64,000 nucleotides of DNA from Candidatus Woesearchaeota archaeon (GTDB lineage: Archaea; Nanobdellota; Nanobdellia; Woesearchaeales; JACPBO01), in contig JAUSCS010000006.1 of NCBI GenBank assembly GCA_030651135.1, positions 650,160-714,159 of the forward strand, written 5' to 3'. Numbering within the stretch: position 1 is the first letter of the stretch; each line of letters starts with the position of its first letter. The translations under genes were made by a program, and so were the position numbers. Shown here piece by piece: positions 1,433-17,084 of this stretch. The notes below the pieces were generated by a model. It did no database searches, was not told where the DNA came from, and saw nothing but the letters and a program-made list of their open reading frames with translations.

Positions 1433-2260
1433 ATGATCATGCAAAAAAGAGGCCAGATAACTGCATTCATTATAATAGGGCTTGTTCTAGTTATTTCTCT
1501 GGTCATTGTTTTTTCAATATCGGGCGGCAGGCAGGCAAGCGAGCTGAAAAGCTCAGCTGCTGAGGCAACTGTTGGCAGCGTAGAAACAACCGTGATCCGC
1601 ACATATATTGAGAATTGCCTGAAGACTACATCTCAGGATGCTGTCTTTTCAAAAATAGGGCTGCACGGGGGATATTTAACAGAAGAAACAGACGTAAATT
1701 ATGCCCACTATCAGGACGACGAAATTACTTATTACGTTCCTTATTATGTTGATGGTGCAGCTATTTCTATTCCTGCGCTCAGCTATATTGAAGCCAAAGC
1801 AGGAGAATATGTTGCAGCAGAAGTTGACACGTGCATTGATTTCGATATGCTGAAAGATCTGGGATATAATATAACAAAAGAGGATGAAATAGAAGTGAGC
1901 TTTAAAATAAACAGGGAAGATATTTCTGTTTCAATGCAATATCTGATAACTGCAAAAAAGGACTCCTCTATGGCAGAATTGTCGCAGTTCAGTGTTGTGC
2001 TTCCGATAAGGCTTGGATTGTTGTATGAAAAAGCAAATGAAATTGTGAATGCGATAAAAGCTGCAGAGCAAATCCAGCCGCCTGAAAATTATGATATTTC
2101 GCAGCACTGCAGTATGTTCGACAATAACGTCAATGTTTATTTTAAGAACGGTGAAATAGTGCAGCTGGTCGACTTCAAAACTTATGATTACAAATATACA
2201 CATTCAACCATATACCAGTTCGCAATACAAAATGTCAGATTCACAGGTGAGTGCAGTTGA
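1433..2260 (+). CDS. hypothetical membrane-anchored protein (N-terminal TM helix)
   Basis: 275-aa ORF with an N-terminal hydrophobic helix; no recognisable motif. Overlaps the next ORF by 10 nt. Confidence 0.45.
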   Translation: MIMQKRGQITAFIIIGLVLVISLVIVFSISGGRQASELKSSAAEATVGSVETTVIRTYIENCLKTTSQDAVFSKIGLHGGYLTEETDVNYAHYQDDEITYYVPYYVDGAAISIPALSYIEAKAGEYVAAEVDTCIDFDMLKDLGYNITKEDEIEVSFKINREDISVSMQYLITAKKDSSMAELSQFSVVLPIRLGLLYEKANEIVNAIKAAEQIQPPENYDISQHCSMFDNNVNVYFKNGEIVQLVDFKTYDYKYTHSTIYQFAIQNVRFTGECS

Positions 2261-3180
2261 AAAAAAACAATGCAGTATTTTTTGTTTTGATGATTTTATT
2301 TATTTTTATTTCTGTAAAAATAGCCCAGGCTGTTCCAGATTCTGACCGCGATGGTGTTCCTGACGCAAATGACAAATGCCCAGGCACAGCTGTATTGATC
2401 GTTGACAGCAATGGCTGCTCCTGCGCCCAAAAAAACTGCCCCAGCTTGAACAATCCGTGCAGAAAAGACTGCGATGACAGCACTTATGAAGCGATATGCG
2501 GCAAGCCGATCGATTATGCGTCATGCGGCAGCGCAAGAACGTGCCCAGAGGATAAATGCGAAGGAGATCTTTTTGTTGATTATCCTGAAAGCAAGAATGA
2601 TTACTGCCTGAACGGAGACTGCTTTGCTTATTCATGCGCAGCATTAAGCAGAGCATATAATGCAGATTGCGCATCTGGAAAAAAACCCAACATTAATGAA
2701 AGCGTTAATAAAACTGTTACGAGCAGCATAATCAATTTAACCAATCTGACAAACATTACAAATCTAACAAGTGCGGCTATTGGGGGAGGCGTTGCAGAAA
2801 ATTTAGAAAATGCCAGCGGCCTTAATCTTTCAAACCAATCAGCAACAAGCAAAGATTCAGGATTTCCGTTTATTCCTTCTGGCGAAGAAAGAACTGCTGC
2901 CAGTCCAATAAAATTCAATCTCGATGCAAGAATAATCATTGTTGGCTTTATTTCAATAGCAATCTTAATCGCAATCATATCGGCAATTCTGATCATAGCA
3001 AGGCAGATTGCAGTATCAGAAGCTGTTTCAATAGAAAGAGATTTGAAGCTGAGAAGATACATATTGGCGGCATTGGCAGCAGGATTTACAATTGATCAGA
3101 TAAGAAGAAGGTTGAAAATGTCAAAGATCCCGGACAAGCATGTTAAGAGGGCGATGAGGGGGATAAGGTTAAAGCGCTAA
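2251..3180 (+). CDS. secreted Cys-rich surface protein with a thrombospondin-type-3-like Ca-binding motif, N-glycosylation sequon cluster and C-terminal TM anchor
   Basis: A GTG start gives a signal peptide MQLKKNNAVFFVLMILFIFISVKIAQA. It carries DSDRDGVPDANDKCPG, 16 Cys, NLTNLTNITNLTS sequons, a C-terminal hydrophobic helix and a basic tail. Confidence 0.5.
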   Translation: MQLKKNNAVFFVLMILFIFISVKIAQAVPDSDRDGVPDANDKCPGTAVLIVDSNGCSCAQKNCPSLNNPCRKDCDDSTYEAICGKPIDYASCGSARTCPEDKCEGDLFVDYPESKNDYCLNGDCFAYSCAALSRAYNADCASGKKPNINESVNKTVTSSIINLTNLTNITNLTSAAIGGGVAENLENASGLNLSNQSATSKDSGFPFIPSGEERTAASPIKFNLDARIIIVGFISIAILIAIISAILIIARQIAVSEAVSIERDLKLRRYILAALAAGFTIDQIRRRLKMSKIPDKHVKRAMRGIRLKR

Positions 3181-4835
3181 GAAAGATTTAAGCTATCATA
3201 GATTTTCTCAAATAAAACCCCTTTTCTAAAAACAACGGGTGAGCCAGAACTTAAATCTATTATTGTTCCGCCTTTTCTTTCAGGATTTTGATATTTTGCA
3301 GGTTTTGAATCATAAATTATGTAATCAACATTATTGACCATTTGTACGGGCAGTTCTTCAAATACCGCACAATTTCCTTCTCCAGTATTATTGGCTGAAG
3401 ACCCGACAATTAAAACCTTGTCTTTCGTTGATAATTGCGCTAATGCTTCAATAACATTTCCAGGATTAAACGGAACTGCAATTTTTCCATCCTGCACCGT
3501 ATGATTCAATACCCACTCCGATAATGCGCCATACCATTGTCTAGATCTTGGGTTGATAGGAACTAAAAAAGAACACAGGTATCCTGCTTCTTTAATTGAC
3601 CGGATATATTTTTCATATGTTGGTATGGGCACATAAGTGACATCATCAAATATTTCTTGGTTATTTCCTATTACCATGCAAGGCTTATATTCAGGCCTTC
3701 CTTTTAATTCATACATCTTCTTTATGGCTTCTTCAGAATTTCCCAATAGCACATAACCAACATCTGAAGGAACTAAAATTAACCCGCCTTCTTTAAGAAC
3801 AGCATATGCCCTTTTAACCTCACGATCGACATTAGCATCACCTAACTCGCTACTTGAATATTTGCCTTGTTTCAATAGCCTTTCCCTCCCTACGTTGTTA
3901 GGATCAAACAATTCATAAGTGGCTGTATTTTTTAAGATGCCTTTTTGATGAGTTCCGCTTAAAGTCGTGAAGGATGTTTTCCCGACTACTGCTTTTTCAC
4001 AAGGAGAATCTCTCCCCAATACAGTATAAACCAATTTGCTTGTTCCAAAGAGCAATTTGGGCTTTATATTTGTTGTAAAATTATAAAAATCAGGCCTTGC
4101 GATTGAAGCAGCAATTATCTCTTCTAATGCGCAATTACCGCTTCGTTCCCCAACACCATTGATAGTTGTCTGTATTTCATCAACTCCTGCTTTGATTGCT
4201 GCCAGAGTATTTGCAACTGCTAATCCCAAATCATTATGCATATGAACACTTATTTTTAAAGAATCTTTAAAATGAGCTTTTATTTTTTTTATCAGATCTC
4301 TAAATTCTTCTGGCTGCGAATGACCTAAAGTATCAGCTATAACGATGCTATTCGCTCCTGCCTTTTTGGATTCTTCACATAATTTAACAAAGAAGGCATA
4401 ATCTGCTCTTGTTGCGTCCTCGATCCCAATAGCCACATCCTGAAATCTTTGTTTTGCGTATTGTGCTGCTTTAATGGTGTTTTCAATAGTTTGCTCTTTT
4501 GACCAACCCAGTTTATTAATCAGAATATCTGAACCAACAGTTGCTAATTCTATTTGAGCATTTTTGTTGGATTTTATGGCATAGTGGGCTGCATCAATAT
4601 CGGATTGATGTAATCTTGAAAATACGCACAACTTTGCATTTAAGTTAAGGCGGCTTATTTCTTGTGCAGCAAGATACTCCATATAACACGCTGCAGGAAA
4701 CCCTGCCTCAATTGTGTTTATGCCCAATTTATCCAGAGCCTTGGCTACCTCTATTTTCTGGGCAATAGTCATCCTGTTATTTGCTCCTTGCTCTCCGTCC
4801 CTGAGTGTTGTGTCGAAAATATTTACCTGTTTCAT
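3177..4835 (-). CDS. fusion protein: N-terminal HMGL-like (LeuA/homocitrate-synthase-type) TIM-barrel domain plus C-terminal YrdC/Sua5 (threonylcarbamoyl-AMP synthase-like) domain
   Basis: The N-terminus MKQVNIFDTTLRDGEQ...HMHNDLGLAVANTLAA matches the HMGL-like family. The C-terminus EGGLILVPSDVGYVLLGNSEEAIKKMYELKGRPEYKPCMVI...GGTIIDLSSGSPVVFRKG matches the YrdC fold. A single uninterrupted 552-aa frame. Confidence 0.65.
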   Translation of the reverse strand: MKQVNIFDTTLRDGEQGANNRMTIAQKIEVAKALDKLGINTIEAGFPAACYMEYLAAQEISRLNLNAKLCVFSRLHQSDIDAAHYAIKSNKNAQIELATVGSDILINKLGWSKEQTIENTIKAAQYAKQRFQDVAIGIEDATRADYAFFVKLCEESKKAGANSIVIADTLGHSQPEEFRDLIKKIKAHFKDSLKISVHMHNDLGLAVANTLAAIKAGVDEIQTTINGVGERSGNCALEEIIAASIARPDFYNFTTNIKPKLLFGTSKLVYTVLGRDSPCEKAVVGKTSFTTLSGTHQKGILKNTATYELFDPNNVGRERLLKQGKYSSSELGDANVDREVKRAYAVLKEGGLILVPSDVGYVLLGNSEEAIKKMYELKGRPEYKPCMVIGNNQEIFDDVTYVPIPTYEKYIRSIKEAGYLCSFLVPINPRSRQWYGALSEWVLNHTVQDGKIAVPFNPGNVIEALAQLSTKDKVLIVGSSANNTGEGNCAVFEELPVQMVNNVDYIIYDSKPAKYQNPERKGGTIIDLSSGSPVVFRKGVLFEKIYDSLNLS

Positions 4836-4941
4836 ATAATTACCGTACAGTAATTACATTTATTAAAGTATATAAATCTTTGTTGTAAATATAATTACTA
4901 CAAATAGAAACATTTAAAAGGCCGAGAATATATCCTGCATT

Positions 4942-13281: not shown

Positions 13282-13810
13282 AAATATTTCTTGCCAATTC
13301 GAGCCTCTTTTTTATATCAGTTATTTTGCCTTCTTCTGTTATGCTGGTCTTTCCTATATAGCTCATCAGCTCCCACTGGGATATACCCAATAGCTCAGAA
13401 GCCTGGGCAATAGAAAGTCCATGCTCATACAGTTTGCTGCCTTTCTTTACCTCAGCCTGCTTTATAACCTCATCTATATACTGTTTTAATTTAACATCAA
13501 CCTTGGAAATTAACTCGAGGATATTCTTAATGGCATCCTGGTATTCTTTTGTTTTATCTTTAATTAAAAGGTCATAAGCATCTTTTAATTTTTTCACTAT
13601 TTCTGCATCAATGCTGCCTGTTCTCTCCATTATTTTTGACATGGCGTATATTATAATTGCAATCGAGATGGAATCCCTGTCCTGGAATATGGATGCATTA
13701 TGTATTGTATGGTTGCTTATCTTTTTAAGATCAACAAAATTTTTTTGCCCTATAAGAATAAGTCCGTCATCAATGATCTTAAGTATGTCTTTTTTGACTA
13801 TCTTATTCAT
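13271..13810 (-). CDS. hypothetical protein with C-terminal HTH
   Basis: C-terminus LSIAQASELLGISQWELMSYIGK is HTH-like. Overlaps the downstream ORF (ATGA). Confidence 0.4.
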   Translation of the reverse strand: MNKIVKKDILKIIDDGLILIGQKNFVDLKKISNHTIHNASIFQDRDSISIAIIIYAMSKIMERTGSIDAEIVKKLKDAYDLLIKDKTKEYQDAIKNILELISKVDVKLKQYIDEVIKQAEVKKGSKLYEHGLSIAQASELLGISQWELMSYIGKTSITEEGKITDIKKRLELARNIFGA

Positions 13811-13879
13811 AAGTTAATTTTTTAATTTTGGATTATTTAAAGGTTATTGTTTTAAACCCGCTAGTTAGAATTCAAACTA

Positions 13880-13981
13880 TTACTTTCTTGCTCTTCTTCT
13901 CTTCTCGCGCTTCATTCTCTTGCGCTGCCACTTCCATCGCATTTGCCTTTTCTTCTTCCATCTACGTGAGCTTCTTTTCAT
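13880..13981 (-). CDS. rpl41e: 50S ribosomal protein L41e (33 aa)
   Basis: Micro-ORF below the track cutoff: MKRSSRRWKKKRQMRWKWQRKRMKREKRRRARK. The RWKKKR.MRWKW core and the Arg/Lys run are typical of L41e. Confidence 0.55.
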   Translation of the reverse strand: MKRSSRRWKKKRQMRWKWQRKRMKREKRRRARK

Positions 13982-14044
13982 AGCGTTCGAAATAAGGGGT
14001 TTCTATTTAAATGTTTTTATTTTGTTAAGTGCACTTTTTAACTA

Positions 14045-14245
14045 ATGAAAGCGCCGACTATGGCGGTGCGACGGATATTTTCCTGCGGAAAATGTCCTAC
14101 GCGACAGCCCGTAGGGCGCAACCCCAGTCGCGCCGCACGCCACGTCGGCGCTGACCTGACGGGGGATGTCCCTTACGGGGTGGCAGGTAGCACAAGCGAA
14201 TGTAATGAGCTTGTGCGTCAGCCGCCGTTGTGGTGGCGTGCGGCT
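14045..14245. ncRNA. GC-rich (about 60% vs 35% background) structured RNA candidate of unknown class (SRP RNA-like or other); strand not assigned
   Basis: An abrupt GC island in an intergenic gap. Long helices are possible: 14051-14070 with 14133-14151 (about 16 bp), GCACAAGC/GCUUGUGC (14200-14226), and 14133-14142 with 14235-14244. The overlapping 98-aa ORF is Arg-rich and non-protein-like. Confidence 0.45.
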
Positions 14246-14368
14246 ATGAAGTTTAAAATTTTACTTTACATATTTTGCATTTATCCGCCAAATCACCAAA
14301 ATCTTTATATATTAGTTATTATTATGAAATGGAAACAATAGATAATTACTTCAAAATGGGGTGGAAAC

Positions 14369-15628
14369 ATGAGGGGTGTAAGATATTTAATTTTGTTGAG
14401 TGTAGTTCTACTGTTAGCTGGCTGCTATAAATATCCAGATTATTTTCCTGGATTGGTTCCTGCTTCGAATGGAACAGGCATTATAGCGCCTTTAAATGCA
14501 ACGCCGCCAGTAAGTGAAGATGTAACCGCAAACATAACTCCTCAGCCTGAAGAGCCCCCGCAGGAGCTGGCAGCATTGACAACTATTTCAGTCAGCGAAG
14601 GCGATTTAGTGAAGCTAAAGCTTGTTGCAGCTGATCCAGACGGCGATGCCCTAACATATACCTATGGCCCGCCATTGAACGAGAAGGGAGAATGGCAGAC
14701 AAAATTGGGTGATATGGGGGAATACAGGGTGACAATAACAGTTTCTGATGGAACAACAGGCGTTTCAAAAGACATCACAATAATTGTAAAGAAAACAAAC
14801 AAGGCTCCAGCAATTACGTCATTCAAGCCTTCTGATTTGATAGCGAACAGCGATGAAGGAAAAACAACTGAATTTAAAGCAGAAGCCACTGACCCGAATA
14901 AGGATGCATTGACATATTTATGGAAAGTTGATGATAAAGAAGTGTCAACTAAGGACTTTTACCTGTATGATCTAAGCTATGACTCTGCAGGCCAGCACAA
15001 AGTAACTGTCGTCATTTCAGATGGCGCTTTGGAAGCATCGAAGGAATGGATAGTTAATGCTGCAAATATCAACAGGCCGCCAGTAATTCAGGACATGGAT
15101 CTGATAAAAGTGAAGGCAAGCGAAACAGTTGAAGTAAGGCCTGTTGTGGTTGACCCAGACGGCGACAAGGTTGATATTACAATATCTGCTCCTTTGACAA
15201 CAGGAACGTGGAAAACCAGCTACAGGGATGCAGGAACTTACACAATAACAGTATCTGCTTCAGACGGCAAGGATATTGCAACAAAGACAGTTGCAATTGA
15301 TGTTATTGAAAGCAACAAGCTGCCTGTGCTGAATAAGATAGATGACATTTCAGCAAATGAAGGTGATATTGTGAAAATCAACGTAGATGCAGCTGATTCA
15401 GATGGCGATGAATTGACAATAACAGTAAGCGGATGGGTGACTTCAACAACTTATCAAACAACATATGATGACGCGTATCCGAAAGGATGCAATGCAAAAG
15501 GATGCACAGCAACATACAATGCAAGGGTTACAGTAAGCGACGGCAAGGAGAGTGTCAGCCAGGATCTGAAGATCTCGGTGAAAGATGTCAACAGGCCGCC
15601 TGTAATCGGCGACATTACGCAAAGTTAA
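14369..15628 (+). CDS. secreted protein with four tandem Ig-like/cadherin-like repeat domains (AADPDGDxLTY motif)
   Basis: Signal peptide with LLAGC, then about 90-aa repeats each with a DPDGD...TY...VSDG core joined by NRPPVI linkers. Confidence 0.6.
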   Translation: MRGVRYLILLSVVLLLAGCYKYPDYFPGLVPASNGTGIIAPLNATPPVSEDVTANITPQPEEPPQELAALTTISVSEGDLVKLKLVAADPDGDALTYTYGPPLNEKGEWQTKLGDMGEYRVTITVSDGTTGVSKDITIIVKKTNKAPAITSFKPSDLIANSDEGKTTEFKAEATDPNKDALTYLWKVDDKEVSTKDFYLYDLSYDSAGQHKVTVVISDGALEASKEWIVNAANINRPPVIQDMDLIKVKASETVEVRPVVVDPDGDKVDITISAPLTTGTWKTSYRDAGTYTITVSASDGKDIATKTVAIDVIESNKLPVLNKIDDISANEGDIVKINVDAADSDGDELTITVSGWVTSTTYQTTYDDAYPKGCNAKGCTATYNARVTVSDGKESVSQDLKISVKDVNRPPVIGDITQS

Positions 15629-15668: not shown

Positions 15669-17084
15669 ATGAAGAAATTACTTATTGCAATAGTTTTAAT
15701 GTTAGTATTATCTTTTTCTGTATTCGCTGTTACAAATCTTACAGTTGATGAAGGAAAGCTGCTGAAAGTCAAAGTAAATACTTATGATCCTGACAAGGAC
15801 AAGCTGACAATAAACTATGCATCACCTTTAAACTCGAAAGGAGAATGGAGGCCGGATTTTAATCAGTCAGGGGATTACAAAAGCTTTGTTTCTGTGTCTG
15901 ACGGCGAGTTTGTCATCTCAGATGAGCTAAACATAAAAGTCATAGATATTGACAGGCCGCCAATATTTAATCCAGTCAGGATTGCTGCTGTGAATGAGAC
16001 GCAGGAAGTTTCGTTTGATGCAAGCGCTTACGATCTTGACGGTGATTTTATTACAATAAGCGCAGTAAGCCTGCCGGAAGGCGCAATTTTCTCCAATAAT
16101 CATTTTTCTATGCCTACAAGCTATGACGCAGTCAAAAAGAACTGGTTTTCCAGATTGATAGATAATCTGCCGTTTGTTAAAATAAGCAAAACATTTGATG
16201 TAAAATTAAAGGCAATCGGCAGGACAGCATATTCTGAAAAGAATTTCAAAGTAAAGGTTTATGATGTCAACAGGCAGCCTGTTTTGGCTGCTCTTGCGCC
16301 GATAACAGTCAATGAAGGCGAAGAGGTTGTAATTAATCCCTCTGCAGCAGATCCTGACAATGATAAAATAAAATACAGCTACAGCGGATGGATGGATTCA
16401 AATAAAAAAATAACCGGCTATGATGATGCCGGAGTGCAGATTATAACTGTAAAGGCATCTGACGGATTTTTATCTGATTCAAAAGATGTTTCTGTAATTG
16501 TGAACAATGTAAACAGAGCTCCTGTATTTGATCCGATAAAGAATGCTGCTGTTAAGGAAGGCGATGAGATTATTATCGATCTTAAAGCAGCTGACCCAGA
16601 TGGCGATGCCCTGATATTTTCCTCTCTAAATATTCCCTATAATTCAACCTTGACTGAGAACAGGTTTATCTACACGCCAAGTTATGACGTTGTAACGCAC
16701 GAAGATGCCAAAACAAGGCAGAAGAAATTCAATATTACATTCACGGCAAGAGACAGCAGCGGCCTTAATGCAACGCAAAATTTCACATTAACAGTCAAGG
16801 ATTTTAATAGGGCGCCTGTTATAAATGATTCTGAGCCTAGCGGAGAAAAGATAAAAGCATATGTCGGCGCAAAGGTAAGGTTCAGCGTAAATGCCTCAGA
16901 CCCTGATGATGACAATCTGACTTATTCATGGCATTTTGGATTTCTGGATACGCGCAAAGGAAAAGACGCAATAACGATGAAGTTCACATCATCAGGGACA
17001 AAGAAGATCGCAGTGACAGTTTCAGACGGCCAGACAACAGCGAAGAAAGAATGGATTGTTGAAGTGCTGTCGAAGAAGAAATAA
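15669..17084 (+). CDS. secreted protein with tandem Ig-like/cadherin-like repeat domains (paralog of the upstream gene)
   Basis: Signal peptide; repeats with ADPDGD/ADPDND, VSDG and NR(A/P)PV linkers. Confidence 0.6.
   Translation: MKKLLIAIVLMLVLSFSVFAVTNLTVDEGKLLKVKVNTYDPDKDKLTINYASPLNSKGEWRPDFNQSGDYKSFVSVSDGEFVISDELNIKVIDIDRPPIFNPVRIAAVNETQEVSFDASAYDLDGDFITISAVSLPEGAIFSNNHFSMPTSYDAVKKNWFSRLIDNLPFVKISKTFDVKLKAIGRTAYSEKNFKVKVYDVNRQPVLAALAPITVNEGEEVVINPSAADPDNDKIKYSYSGWMDSNKKITGYDDAGVQIITVKASDGFLSDSKDVSVIVNNVNRAPVFDPIKNAAVKEGDEIIIDLKAADPDGDALIFSSLNIPYNSTLTENRFIYTPSYDVVTHEDAKTRQKKFNITFTARDSSGLNATQNFTLTVKDFNRAPVINDSEPSGEKIKAYVGAKVRFSVNASDPDDDNLTYSWHFGFLDTRKGKDAITMKFTSSGTKKIAVTVSDGQTTAKKEWIVEVLSKKK

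Follow-up and report, generated by a model that had tools for sequence, protein, structure and literature searches.

The GC-rich island located at positions 14048–14244 of the analyzed window (the whole 64-kb stretch of DNA) is a head-to-head heterodimer, both halves of which belong to an as yet undescribed family of small structured interspersed repeats. A covariance model (R1), which was built from an alignment of 26 units (A2) and searched over 1.3 Mb of loci, matched the island at full length twice, once on each strand (Table 1). The single RNA of approximately 200 nt that an earlier note had proposed for this segment is thus replaced by two units on opposite strands. Since these units, termed R and L, overlap by 24 bp, one DNA segment serves as the 5' stem strand of each: unit R uses its top strand as the 5' strand of P1, and unit L uses the complementary strand in the same way. 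Unit R consists of a P1–P2 stem, a three-way junction, a P3 helix carrying a loop referred to as the knob, and a P4 hairpin. The island is not a housekeeping RNA gene.

Table 1. Units of the island, their structural parts, and family matches at locus L186 (positions refer to the window, and for L186 to that locus).
Feature	Positions	Strand	Basis or remark
Unit R, type-1, 113 nt	14132-14244	+	Full-length R1 match, 103.7 bits, E 5.7e-23
Unit L, type-2, 108 nt	14048-14155	-	Full-length R1 match, 63.2 bits, E 1.3e-12
Shared 24-bp segment	14132-14155	both	Overlap of the two R1 matches
Unit R, type-1 knob GGGGG-ATGT-CCCT-TAC-GGGG-T	14161-14181	+	Exact pattern match
Unit L, type-2 knob T-GGGG-TTGC-GCCC-TAC-GGGC-T	14106-14126	-	Core from alignment A3
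Unit R, P1	14132-14143 with 14233-14244, 14146-14150 with 14223-14227	+	
Unit R, P1 3' strand GTGGCGTGCGGC	14233-14244	+	12/12 complementary to 14132-14143
Unit R, P2	14151-14154 with 14218-14221	+	
Unit R, P3	CCTGAC 14155-14160 with GGCAGG 14182-14187	+	One A.G mismatch
Unit R, P3 3' strand and conserved junction	14182-14189	+	With G14190 reads G-TA-G, GTAG tag
Unit R, P4 variable hairpin GCACAAGC / 11-nt loop / GCTTGTGC	14190-14216	+	
Unit L, P4 hairpin GGACATTTTCC-GCA-GGAAAATATCC	14073-14097	-	MFE of unit L
Unit L, outer P1 strand	14050-14058		9/9 complementary to 14144-14152
L186, family matches	2158-2290 (-), 4614-4739 (-), 4750-4850 (+)		

Composition and folding of the island

The high GC content that had drawn attention to the island was borne out, with 61–71% at 14048–14244 compared to approximately 30% in the flanks. 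In 100-nt windows, values of 0.66, 0.71 and 0.61 were obtained across 14050–14249 (0.66–0.71 between 14050 and 14199, and still 0.61 at 14150–14249) versus 0.21–0.36 immediately outside. Folding of positions 14035–14255 (221 nt) yielded -105.9 kcal/mol (z = -4.6) for the plus strand and -96.6 kcal/mol (z = -5.6) for the minus strand, and none of 200 shuffled sequences folded as well on either strand. Folded alone, unit R reached -64.1 kcal/mol (z -4.4) and unit L -59.7 kcal/mol (z -5.1).

Regarding the helices described in the earlier note, the one between 14133–14142 and 14235–14244 was recovered as a perfect 12-bp helix formed by 14132–14143 and 14233–14244, and the one between 14051–14070 and 14133–14151 holds in its core, which is a perfect 9-bp pairing of 14050–14058 with 14144–14152. 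The GCACAAGC/GCTTGTGC hairpin is real as well, but its arms lie at 14190–14197 and 14209–14216, i.e., 10 nt upstream of the range 14200–14226 quoted for it; it is followed by G14217-T-C, completing a CGTC tag. Both long helices make use of the segment 14132–14151 and are therefore mutually exclusive on one strand, representing alternatives and not the pseudoknot that had been suggested. In the family model, each of these two exclusive helices is the closing stem of a separate unit, one unit lying on either strand.

The 560-nt gap harboring the island, previously regarded as devoid of any credible open reading frame (ORF), contains a 33-aa ORF at 13880–13981 on the minus strand. Its Arg/Lys-rich product MKRSSRRWKKKRQMRWKWQRKRMKREKRRRARK represents ribosomal protein L41e/eS32, which was missed by Pfam and matches archaeal ribosome chains over residues 1–32 (E 0.005). 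The TATA element at 14003–14011 was assigned to the L41e gene because of the A-rich BRE on its minus side, as read from the sequence. Directly downstream of the island, two adjacent predicted proteins are encoded on the plus strand (14369–15628 and 15669–17084), featuring N-terminal signal-like sequences as well as Big_9, PKD and cadherin-like repeats; the promoter of this gene pair (ctttatatat) is located at approximately 14299, about 55 nt past unit R.

Several known RNA classes and elements were considered for the island. An Rfam scan of both strands had been recommended in the earlier note, which named SRP RNA and a reduced RNase P RNA as candidates. At gathering threshold, no Rfam 15 family matched anywhere in the 64-kb window, and only two chance miRNA matches were obtained for both strands of 13800–14450 at E<=10. 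Moreover, a search over 14 related loci returned only tRNAs, located elsewhere in those loci. Neither SRP nor RNase P RNA was thus recovered: the covariance model of archaeal SRP RNA (RF01857) was without match at gathering threshold and at E<=10, the element furthermore being multi-copy and replaced or deleted in close strains, and the RNase P RNA types A, M and T gave no Rfam match. Likewise, no ACAGAA...GGCUUA-like CR-V was seen, and the motifs of SRP helix 8 and of RNase P CR-I/CR-V are absent from the island sequence. The RNase P CR-II-like match GGCAGGUA mentioned in the earlier note turned out to be the 3' strand of P3 together with the conserved GUA junction. H/ACA RNA (ACA box), C/D boxes, hammerhead and HDV-like ribozymes, BHB splice motifs and 5S rRNA did not fit by their consensus motifs either, and ARAGORN predicted no tRNA or tmRNA genes in the window. 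An integron attC site was rejected as well, as the P1 strands do not fit GTTRRRY (R''/R' boxes RYYYAAC/GTTRRRY) and the 64-kb window contains one element, compared to the cassette arrays of integrons.

SRP and RNase P RNAs are single-copy. That the island represents one of these, or any other single-copy housekeeping RNA, is consistent with its being GC-rich and highly structured within an AT-rich archaeal genome, but the probability of this explanation is close to nil, given several copies per genome, two units on opposite strands, and replacement or absence of the element in close strains.

Architecture and distribution of the repeat family

The invariant 21-nt core GGGGNTGTCCCTTACGGGGTG, which has one match in the 64-kb window compared to none expected by chance, was found at more than 220 loci, nearly all of them on DPANN MAGs or metagenome contigs. 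These include 103 stretches of species-representative genomes, almost all from Woesearchaeota or Nanoarchaeota MAGs, and at least 120 metagenome stretches. Several copies per genome were observed, with up to six core-bearing contigs in one MAG, and no match was obtained in viral contigs. The family is absent from Rfam 15, and no description of it was found in the literature by topic or by sequence string; as far as could be found, this DPANN family of structured repeats is previously undescribed.

A few matches to the core carry bacterial bin labels, namely Binatia, Planctomycetaceae, Alphaproteobacteria and Roizmanbacteria (contigs L027, L035, L107, L036). Locus L027 is probably mis-binned, since it encodes apparent archaeal-type pilins (signal sequences), and in L035, featuring a GC content of 71%, the knob hairpin may truly be of bacterial origin.

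Units of the family are approximately 95–135 nt in length, and their common structure was written by hand on alignment A2. The long closing stem P1/P2 ends in a three-way junction; P1 carries a 3-nt bulge on its 3' strand and often reads ATGGCG/CGCCAT in its upper part, and P2 comprises 4–5 bp. P3 (6 bp) closes the 21-nt knob loop and is followed by the GUA junction and P4. On this structure, 87.6% of the cells in the 26-unit alignment pair, versus 37–51% when the partners are slid by 1–3 columns, and 31 of the 36 pairs have changed on both sides, values reached by none of 500 shuffles. The earlier note's reading of the island as structured is thus supported, the element being real, folded and evolutionarily conserved, with stems that covary heavily. 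For P3 (A2 columns 30–35 with 59–65), 90% of the cells pair and 5/6 pairs changed on both sides; for P4 the respective values are 92.8% and 7/8. The stems covary freely and the type-1 knob is invariant.

Of 174 units, 91 have GTAG at the P3/P4 junction immediately 5' of P4 and a further 31 have GCAG or ATAG there; on the 3' side of P4, CGT(C) is present in about 124 of these units. Among 176 P4 loops, 98 are triloops, mostly of the type C(GNA)G (GAA/GTA/GCA/GGA/AAA), and GNRA tetraloops are few. The C(GNA)G triloop is exceptionally stable in DNA. Furthermore, unit classes of identical P1 sequence recur in many species, and many units are bordered by GAAAAAA...TTTTTTC, extending P1.

The P3-plus-knob hairpin (model positions 24–56) also occurs alone, at loci L024/L029/L068/L093/L050 and L039/L084/L090/L103/L010/L033. 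There it is hosted by two other, differently folded scaffolds of approximately 190 and 140 nt with several copies per genome, and the copies of one of these scaffolds adjoin a putative rpS3Ae gene, as judged by a look at the sequence. Nested units were observed at L020 (~3985–4133, minus strand) and L074 (6189–6336), where another class contributes the 5' stem strand (..TCCAGCCATGGCGAG) and a complete unit sits inside this strand or follows it immediately; in L074 the outer stem encloses the whole inner unit.

Knob covariation and the folded strand

All knob cores can be divided into a 5' run (5 nt), a linker of 3–4 nt, a segment Y (4 nt), a loop of 3–4 nt, a segment R2 (4 nt) and a T at the end. 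The covariation between Y and R2 is that of a Watson–Crick hairpin (CCCC/GGGG, CTCC/GGAG, TCCC/GGGA, GCCC/GGGC), and the 5' run is the mirror image of R2. The 5' run is unable to pair with Y in the usual antiparallel orientation. A major-groove triple stack is the simplest explanation for this arrangement. Based on the covariation of the cores, we infer that the 5' run would lie antiparallel to R2 within the C/G hairpin and form G.G-C, A.A-U and U.C-G triples. Counted on distinct cores, which are not phylogenetically independent, a C-G bottom pair is accompanied by a 5' T in 6/6, an A-T bottom pair by A in 5/6 and a G-C bottom pair by G in 23/32 cases; for the second layer, the counts are 4/5 for A-T combined with A and 36/38 for G-C combined with G. 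The type-2 knob of unit L follows the same rule, its C-G bottom pair being combined with a 5' T.

Comparable covariation is displayed by the major-groove purine base triples of the tRNA core (9-23-12, 46-22-13, 45-10-25) and by purine-motif (R.R-Y) DNA triplexes, in which G.G-C likewise exchanges with A.A-U(T), T.C-G appears at an inverted pair and the third strand runs antiparallel to the purine strand. The knob differs from both in that a single unbroken loop of 21 nt would supply 4–5 consecutive triples, with the run first, then a 4-nt linker and then the hairpin. To our knowledge, no natural motif with this layout has been described. The proposal that the knob constitutes a new tertiary motif and, at the same time, the recognition handle of a DPANN-specific system, either of repeats mobilized as single-stranded DNA or of structured RNAs also recruited by insertion sequences (ISs) and scaffolds, is put forward tentatively and is held to fall short of an even chance.

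In order to assign the fold to one strand, the non-canonical pairs were considered. The MAFFT alignment was without strand signal (G.U 21 vs A.C 20), whereas the model-fitted alignment of 174 distinct units showed 195 G.U vs 94 A.C pairs and 342 G.A/A.G vs 65 C.T/T.C pairs; tandem G.A pairs are located in P3 of one subfamily. Because a model-fitted alignment leans towards allowed pairs, the G.A asymmetry represents the stronger argument. These values point to the strand carrying the G-rich core as the one that probably folds, which would also explain why unit L scores on the minus strand.

Genomic context, turnover and possible role of the repeats

Units occur singly or as strictly divergent pairs of type 1 and type 2. 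All 40 adjacent unit pairs are divergent, none being convergent or tandem, and in each of the 35 typed pairs one unit carries the invariant type-1 knob and its partner a variable type-2 knob. Overlaps of 15–27 bp were detected in 16 of the first 36 pairs, and the pair gaps cluster at approximately -24 or at +6 to +30.

Turnover at the locus was evaluated by comparing four syntenic strains of 86–90% protein identity. The 179-aa neighbor protein of the island is 100% identical to a protein of a Candidatus Woesearchaeota MAG, and synteny followed via this flanking protein held only in relatives of 86–90% identity and was lost at approximately 55%. The window strain possesses the double element of approximately 200 nt, whereas L001 and L109 contain a single unit of ~98 nt that belongs to another class, has wholly different stems and shares only a 30-nt core; in L001, P4 is replaced by GGTTTTTGC/GCAAAAACC, and in L109 the 3' stem strand of the window type persists in decayed form. 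In L110, only the outer hairpin AAAATCCAG-TGTTTGG-CTGGATTTT is present and the 77-nt interior is absent; the interior was either lost by a deletion that the hairpin mediated, or the locus shows the state before insertion. Since the island differs while the intergenic flanks are approximately 94% identical across strains, the element is dispensable at this locus and subject to fast turnover. This picture suggests something close to the "fragment of foreign GC-rich DNA" that the earlier note had listed as an outcome refuting its own proposal.

When L110 is aligned to window positions 14040–14250, its segment AAAATCCAG-TGTTTGG-CTGGATTTTTTT corresponds to the outer stem of a class-I unit. Moreover, for L001 (2493–2852) and L002 (277–636), public gene calls include a 119-aa "protein" that spans both the structured unit and the region of L41e; this ORF is most likely spurious and caused by the GC-rich repeat.

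Based on these results, a non-autonomous repeat that resembles bacterial REP/BIME elements (REPINs), is dispensable and is probably mobile is proposed for the family, a reading that we consider to have about an even chance of being correct. The fold, in single-stranded DNA and/or in read-through RNA, would be what is copied or selected, and the knob and the GTAG-tagged hairpin may serve as handles for a candidate trans-acting factor. REPs have been described as short hairpins tagged by GTAG or CGTC, single or paired and varying between strains; they form inverted dimers, rarely tandem dimers, and in some families obligate heterodimers (Di Nocera et al. 2013, PMC3733652). The enzyme proposed to mobilize them is RAYT, for which single-stranded DNA is the substrate and GTAG the cleavage site, and tagged REP families were assigned to bacterial phyla (PMC3733652).

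The DPANN units resemble these elements in being small GC-rich folded intergenic repeats that are present in several copies per genome, singly or as inverted dimers, with tandem pairs absent or rare and heterodimers as in some REP families. They also share a short GTAG-tagged hairpin with a stem of 6–9 bp and a loop of 2–3 nt, and copy content that varies between strains. In contrast to REPs, the host is archaeal and the unit is 3–5 times larger and branched, featuring a three-way junction and an invariant 21-nt knob that REPs lack; with 95–135 nt, a three-way junction and a 21-nt loop, it is not the simple stem-loop of 20–40 bp by which REPs are recognized. Furthermore, one DPANN hairpin bears both the GTAG and the CGTC tag, and no RAYT (a Y1 HUH transposase) flanked by the units as in a REPtron was found in 200 loci and no RAYT or other mobilizing enzyme in the 1.34 Mb of flanking DNA. 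The only Y1 transposase encoded in these 1.34 Mb belongs to the IS200 family (L186, 2654–3274, plus strand; NF033573, 127 bits), reaches 38 bits with the RAYT model compared to a cut-off of 80, and is separated by 364 nt from a family relative that lacks the knob. Target-site duplications or a clean empty site were not seen, direct repeats do not flank the units, and the L110 state may be a simple deletion. Moreover, heavy stem covariation around an invariant loop typifies functional RNAs more than it does transposon families of recent origin.

Read as RNA, the family would consist of paralogous small stable ncRNAs acting in trans, or of RNA modules in UTRs, the pairs representing back-to-back genes or modules and the knob binding a conserved DPANN protein or blocking exonucleases. 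This is considered possible but rather unlikely, and it shares one structural model with the REP-like reading. Strong covariation of the stems around an invariant loop, base-triple covariation of the tRNA-core kind and folding of the G-rich strand argue for it, as do the reuse of the P3-plus-knob hairpin in at least two other repeated scaffolds and the recurrence of unit classes with the same P1 sequence in many species. Further support comes from the DDE_Tnp_1 IS, the only exception to the finding that no conserved neighboring gene recurs in 200 loci. This IS encodes a transposase of approximately 390 aa between inverted repeats (CAGTAGAT.../...ATCTACTG), and all six metagenome copies contain a type-1 unit in sense orientation that starts 12–20 nt past the stop codon of the transposase and precedes the right terminal inverted repeat (TIR), which fits a role in an RNA 3' UTR. 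Copies were found in L134 (120–1480), L114, L196 and L199, and related ones in L190 and L131; between two diverged IS lineages, the unit stems differ by compensatory changes. On the other hand, no dedicated promoter was found in the form of a TATA/BRE at a fixed distance upstream of the units, many of which have none, and the 5' ends of paired units overlap by ~24 bp, leaving no room for promoters. G.U pairs are rare (~4% of pairs), the hairpins carry GNA triloops and not GNRA or UNCG tetraloops, units are deleted or swapped between close strains, and their orientation relative to adjacent gene 3' ends is unconstrained (42 vs 30), all of which speaks against an RNA gene or module.

The distribution of the units, which are scattered in intergenic regions, also bears on a cis-acting function. 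As a palindrome between A- and T-runs, the element could separate transcription units as a bidirectional terminator or insulator, or act at the DNA level as a promoter-upstream element. The flanking GAAAAAA...TTTTTTC of many units would suit such a function, and so would their tight spacing to stop codons (median ~45 nt) and their distance of ~90–100 nt from gene starts, with the downstream genes possessing their own TATA approximately 40–50 nt past the unit; these distances mirror ordinary intergenic layout. Of 75 units, only 8 reside between convergent genes, and 25 are found between divergent ones, a setting that calls for no terminator. A T-run of at least five at the 3' end is present in only 48/167 units and mirrored by an A-run on the opposite side that is as frequent (52/167), which also led to rejection of an intrinsic terminator, and the units of the window itself lack such a T-run next to P1. 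Since the runs are symmetric, with T-runs in <30% of units, a terminator role is unlikely; the three-way junction and the invariant knob are far more than termination needs, and the cis-acting explanation as a whole is regarded as improbable. Upstream of co-oriented genes, a bias of 55 vs 26 hints at a directional role, which counts against the REP-like reading.

Similarities to MITEs, ERIC, Correia/CREE, RUP and RPE were noted as well. These are non-coding repeats of approximately 100 nt with long terminal inverted repeats, which are intergenic, sometimes nested and sometimes hitchhike in or beside an IS. The DPANN units differ from MITEs in that no target-site duplication was seen and in that their copies deviate by compensatory stem changes instead of being near-identical by recent descent. 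Moreover, the only IS found with a DPANN unit carries it internally, and its TIRs (CAGTAGAT...) are unrelated. A MITE of the DDE IS was rejected, as the TIRs of the unit-bearing IS are different and the TIR motif is absent from free units. The genes between spaced units are unrelated, and units as ends of a cargo transposon were likewise rejected.

DPANN genomes comprise approximately 1 Mb and contain little spare DNA, and a conserved multi-copy family of folded repeats is therefore unexpected in these organisms. Annotation of islands of this type as SRP or RNase P RNA genes should be avoided, and spurious ORFs called over them, such as the 119-aa "gene" in L001/L002, are a further consequence of these repeats. 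The knob provides a compact, covariation-supported candidate for a triple-helix motif, and GGGGNTGTCCCTTACGGGGTG represents a sequence handle for finding the partner protein or the mobilization mechanism. Novelty lies in the knob motif and in the archaeal setting, and the family would extend REP/BIME-type biology to Archaea.
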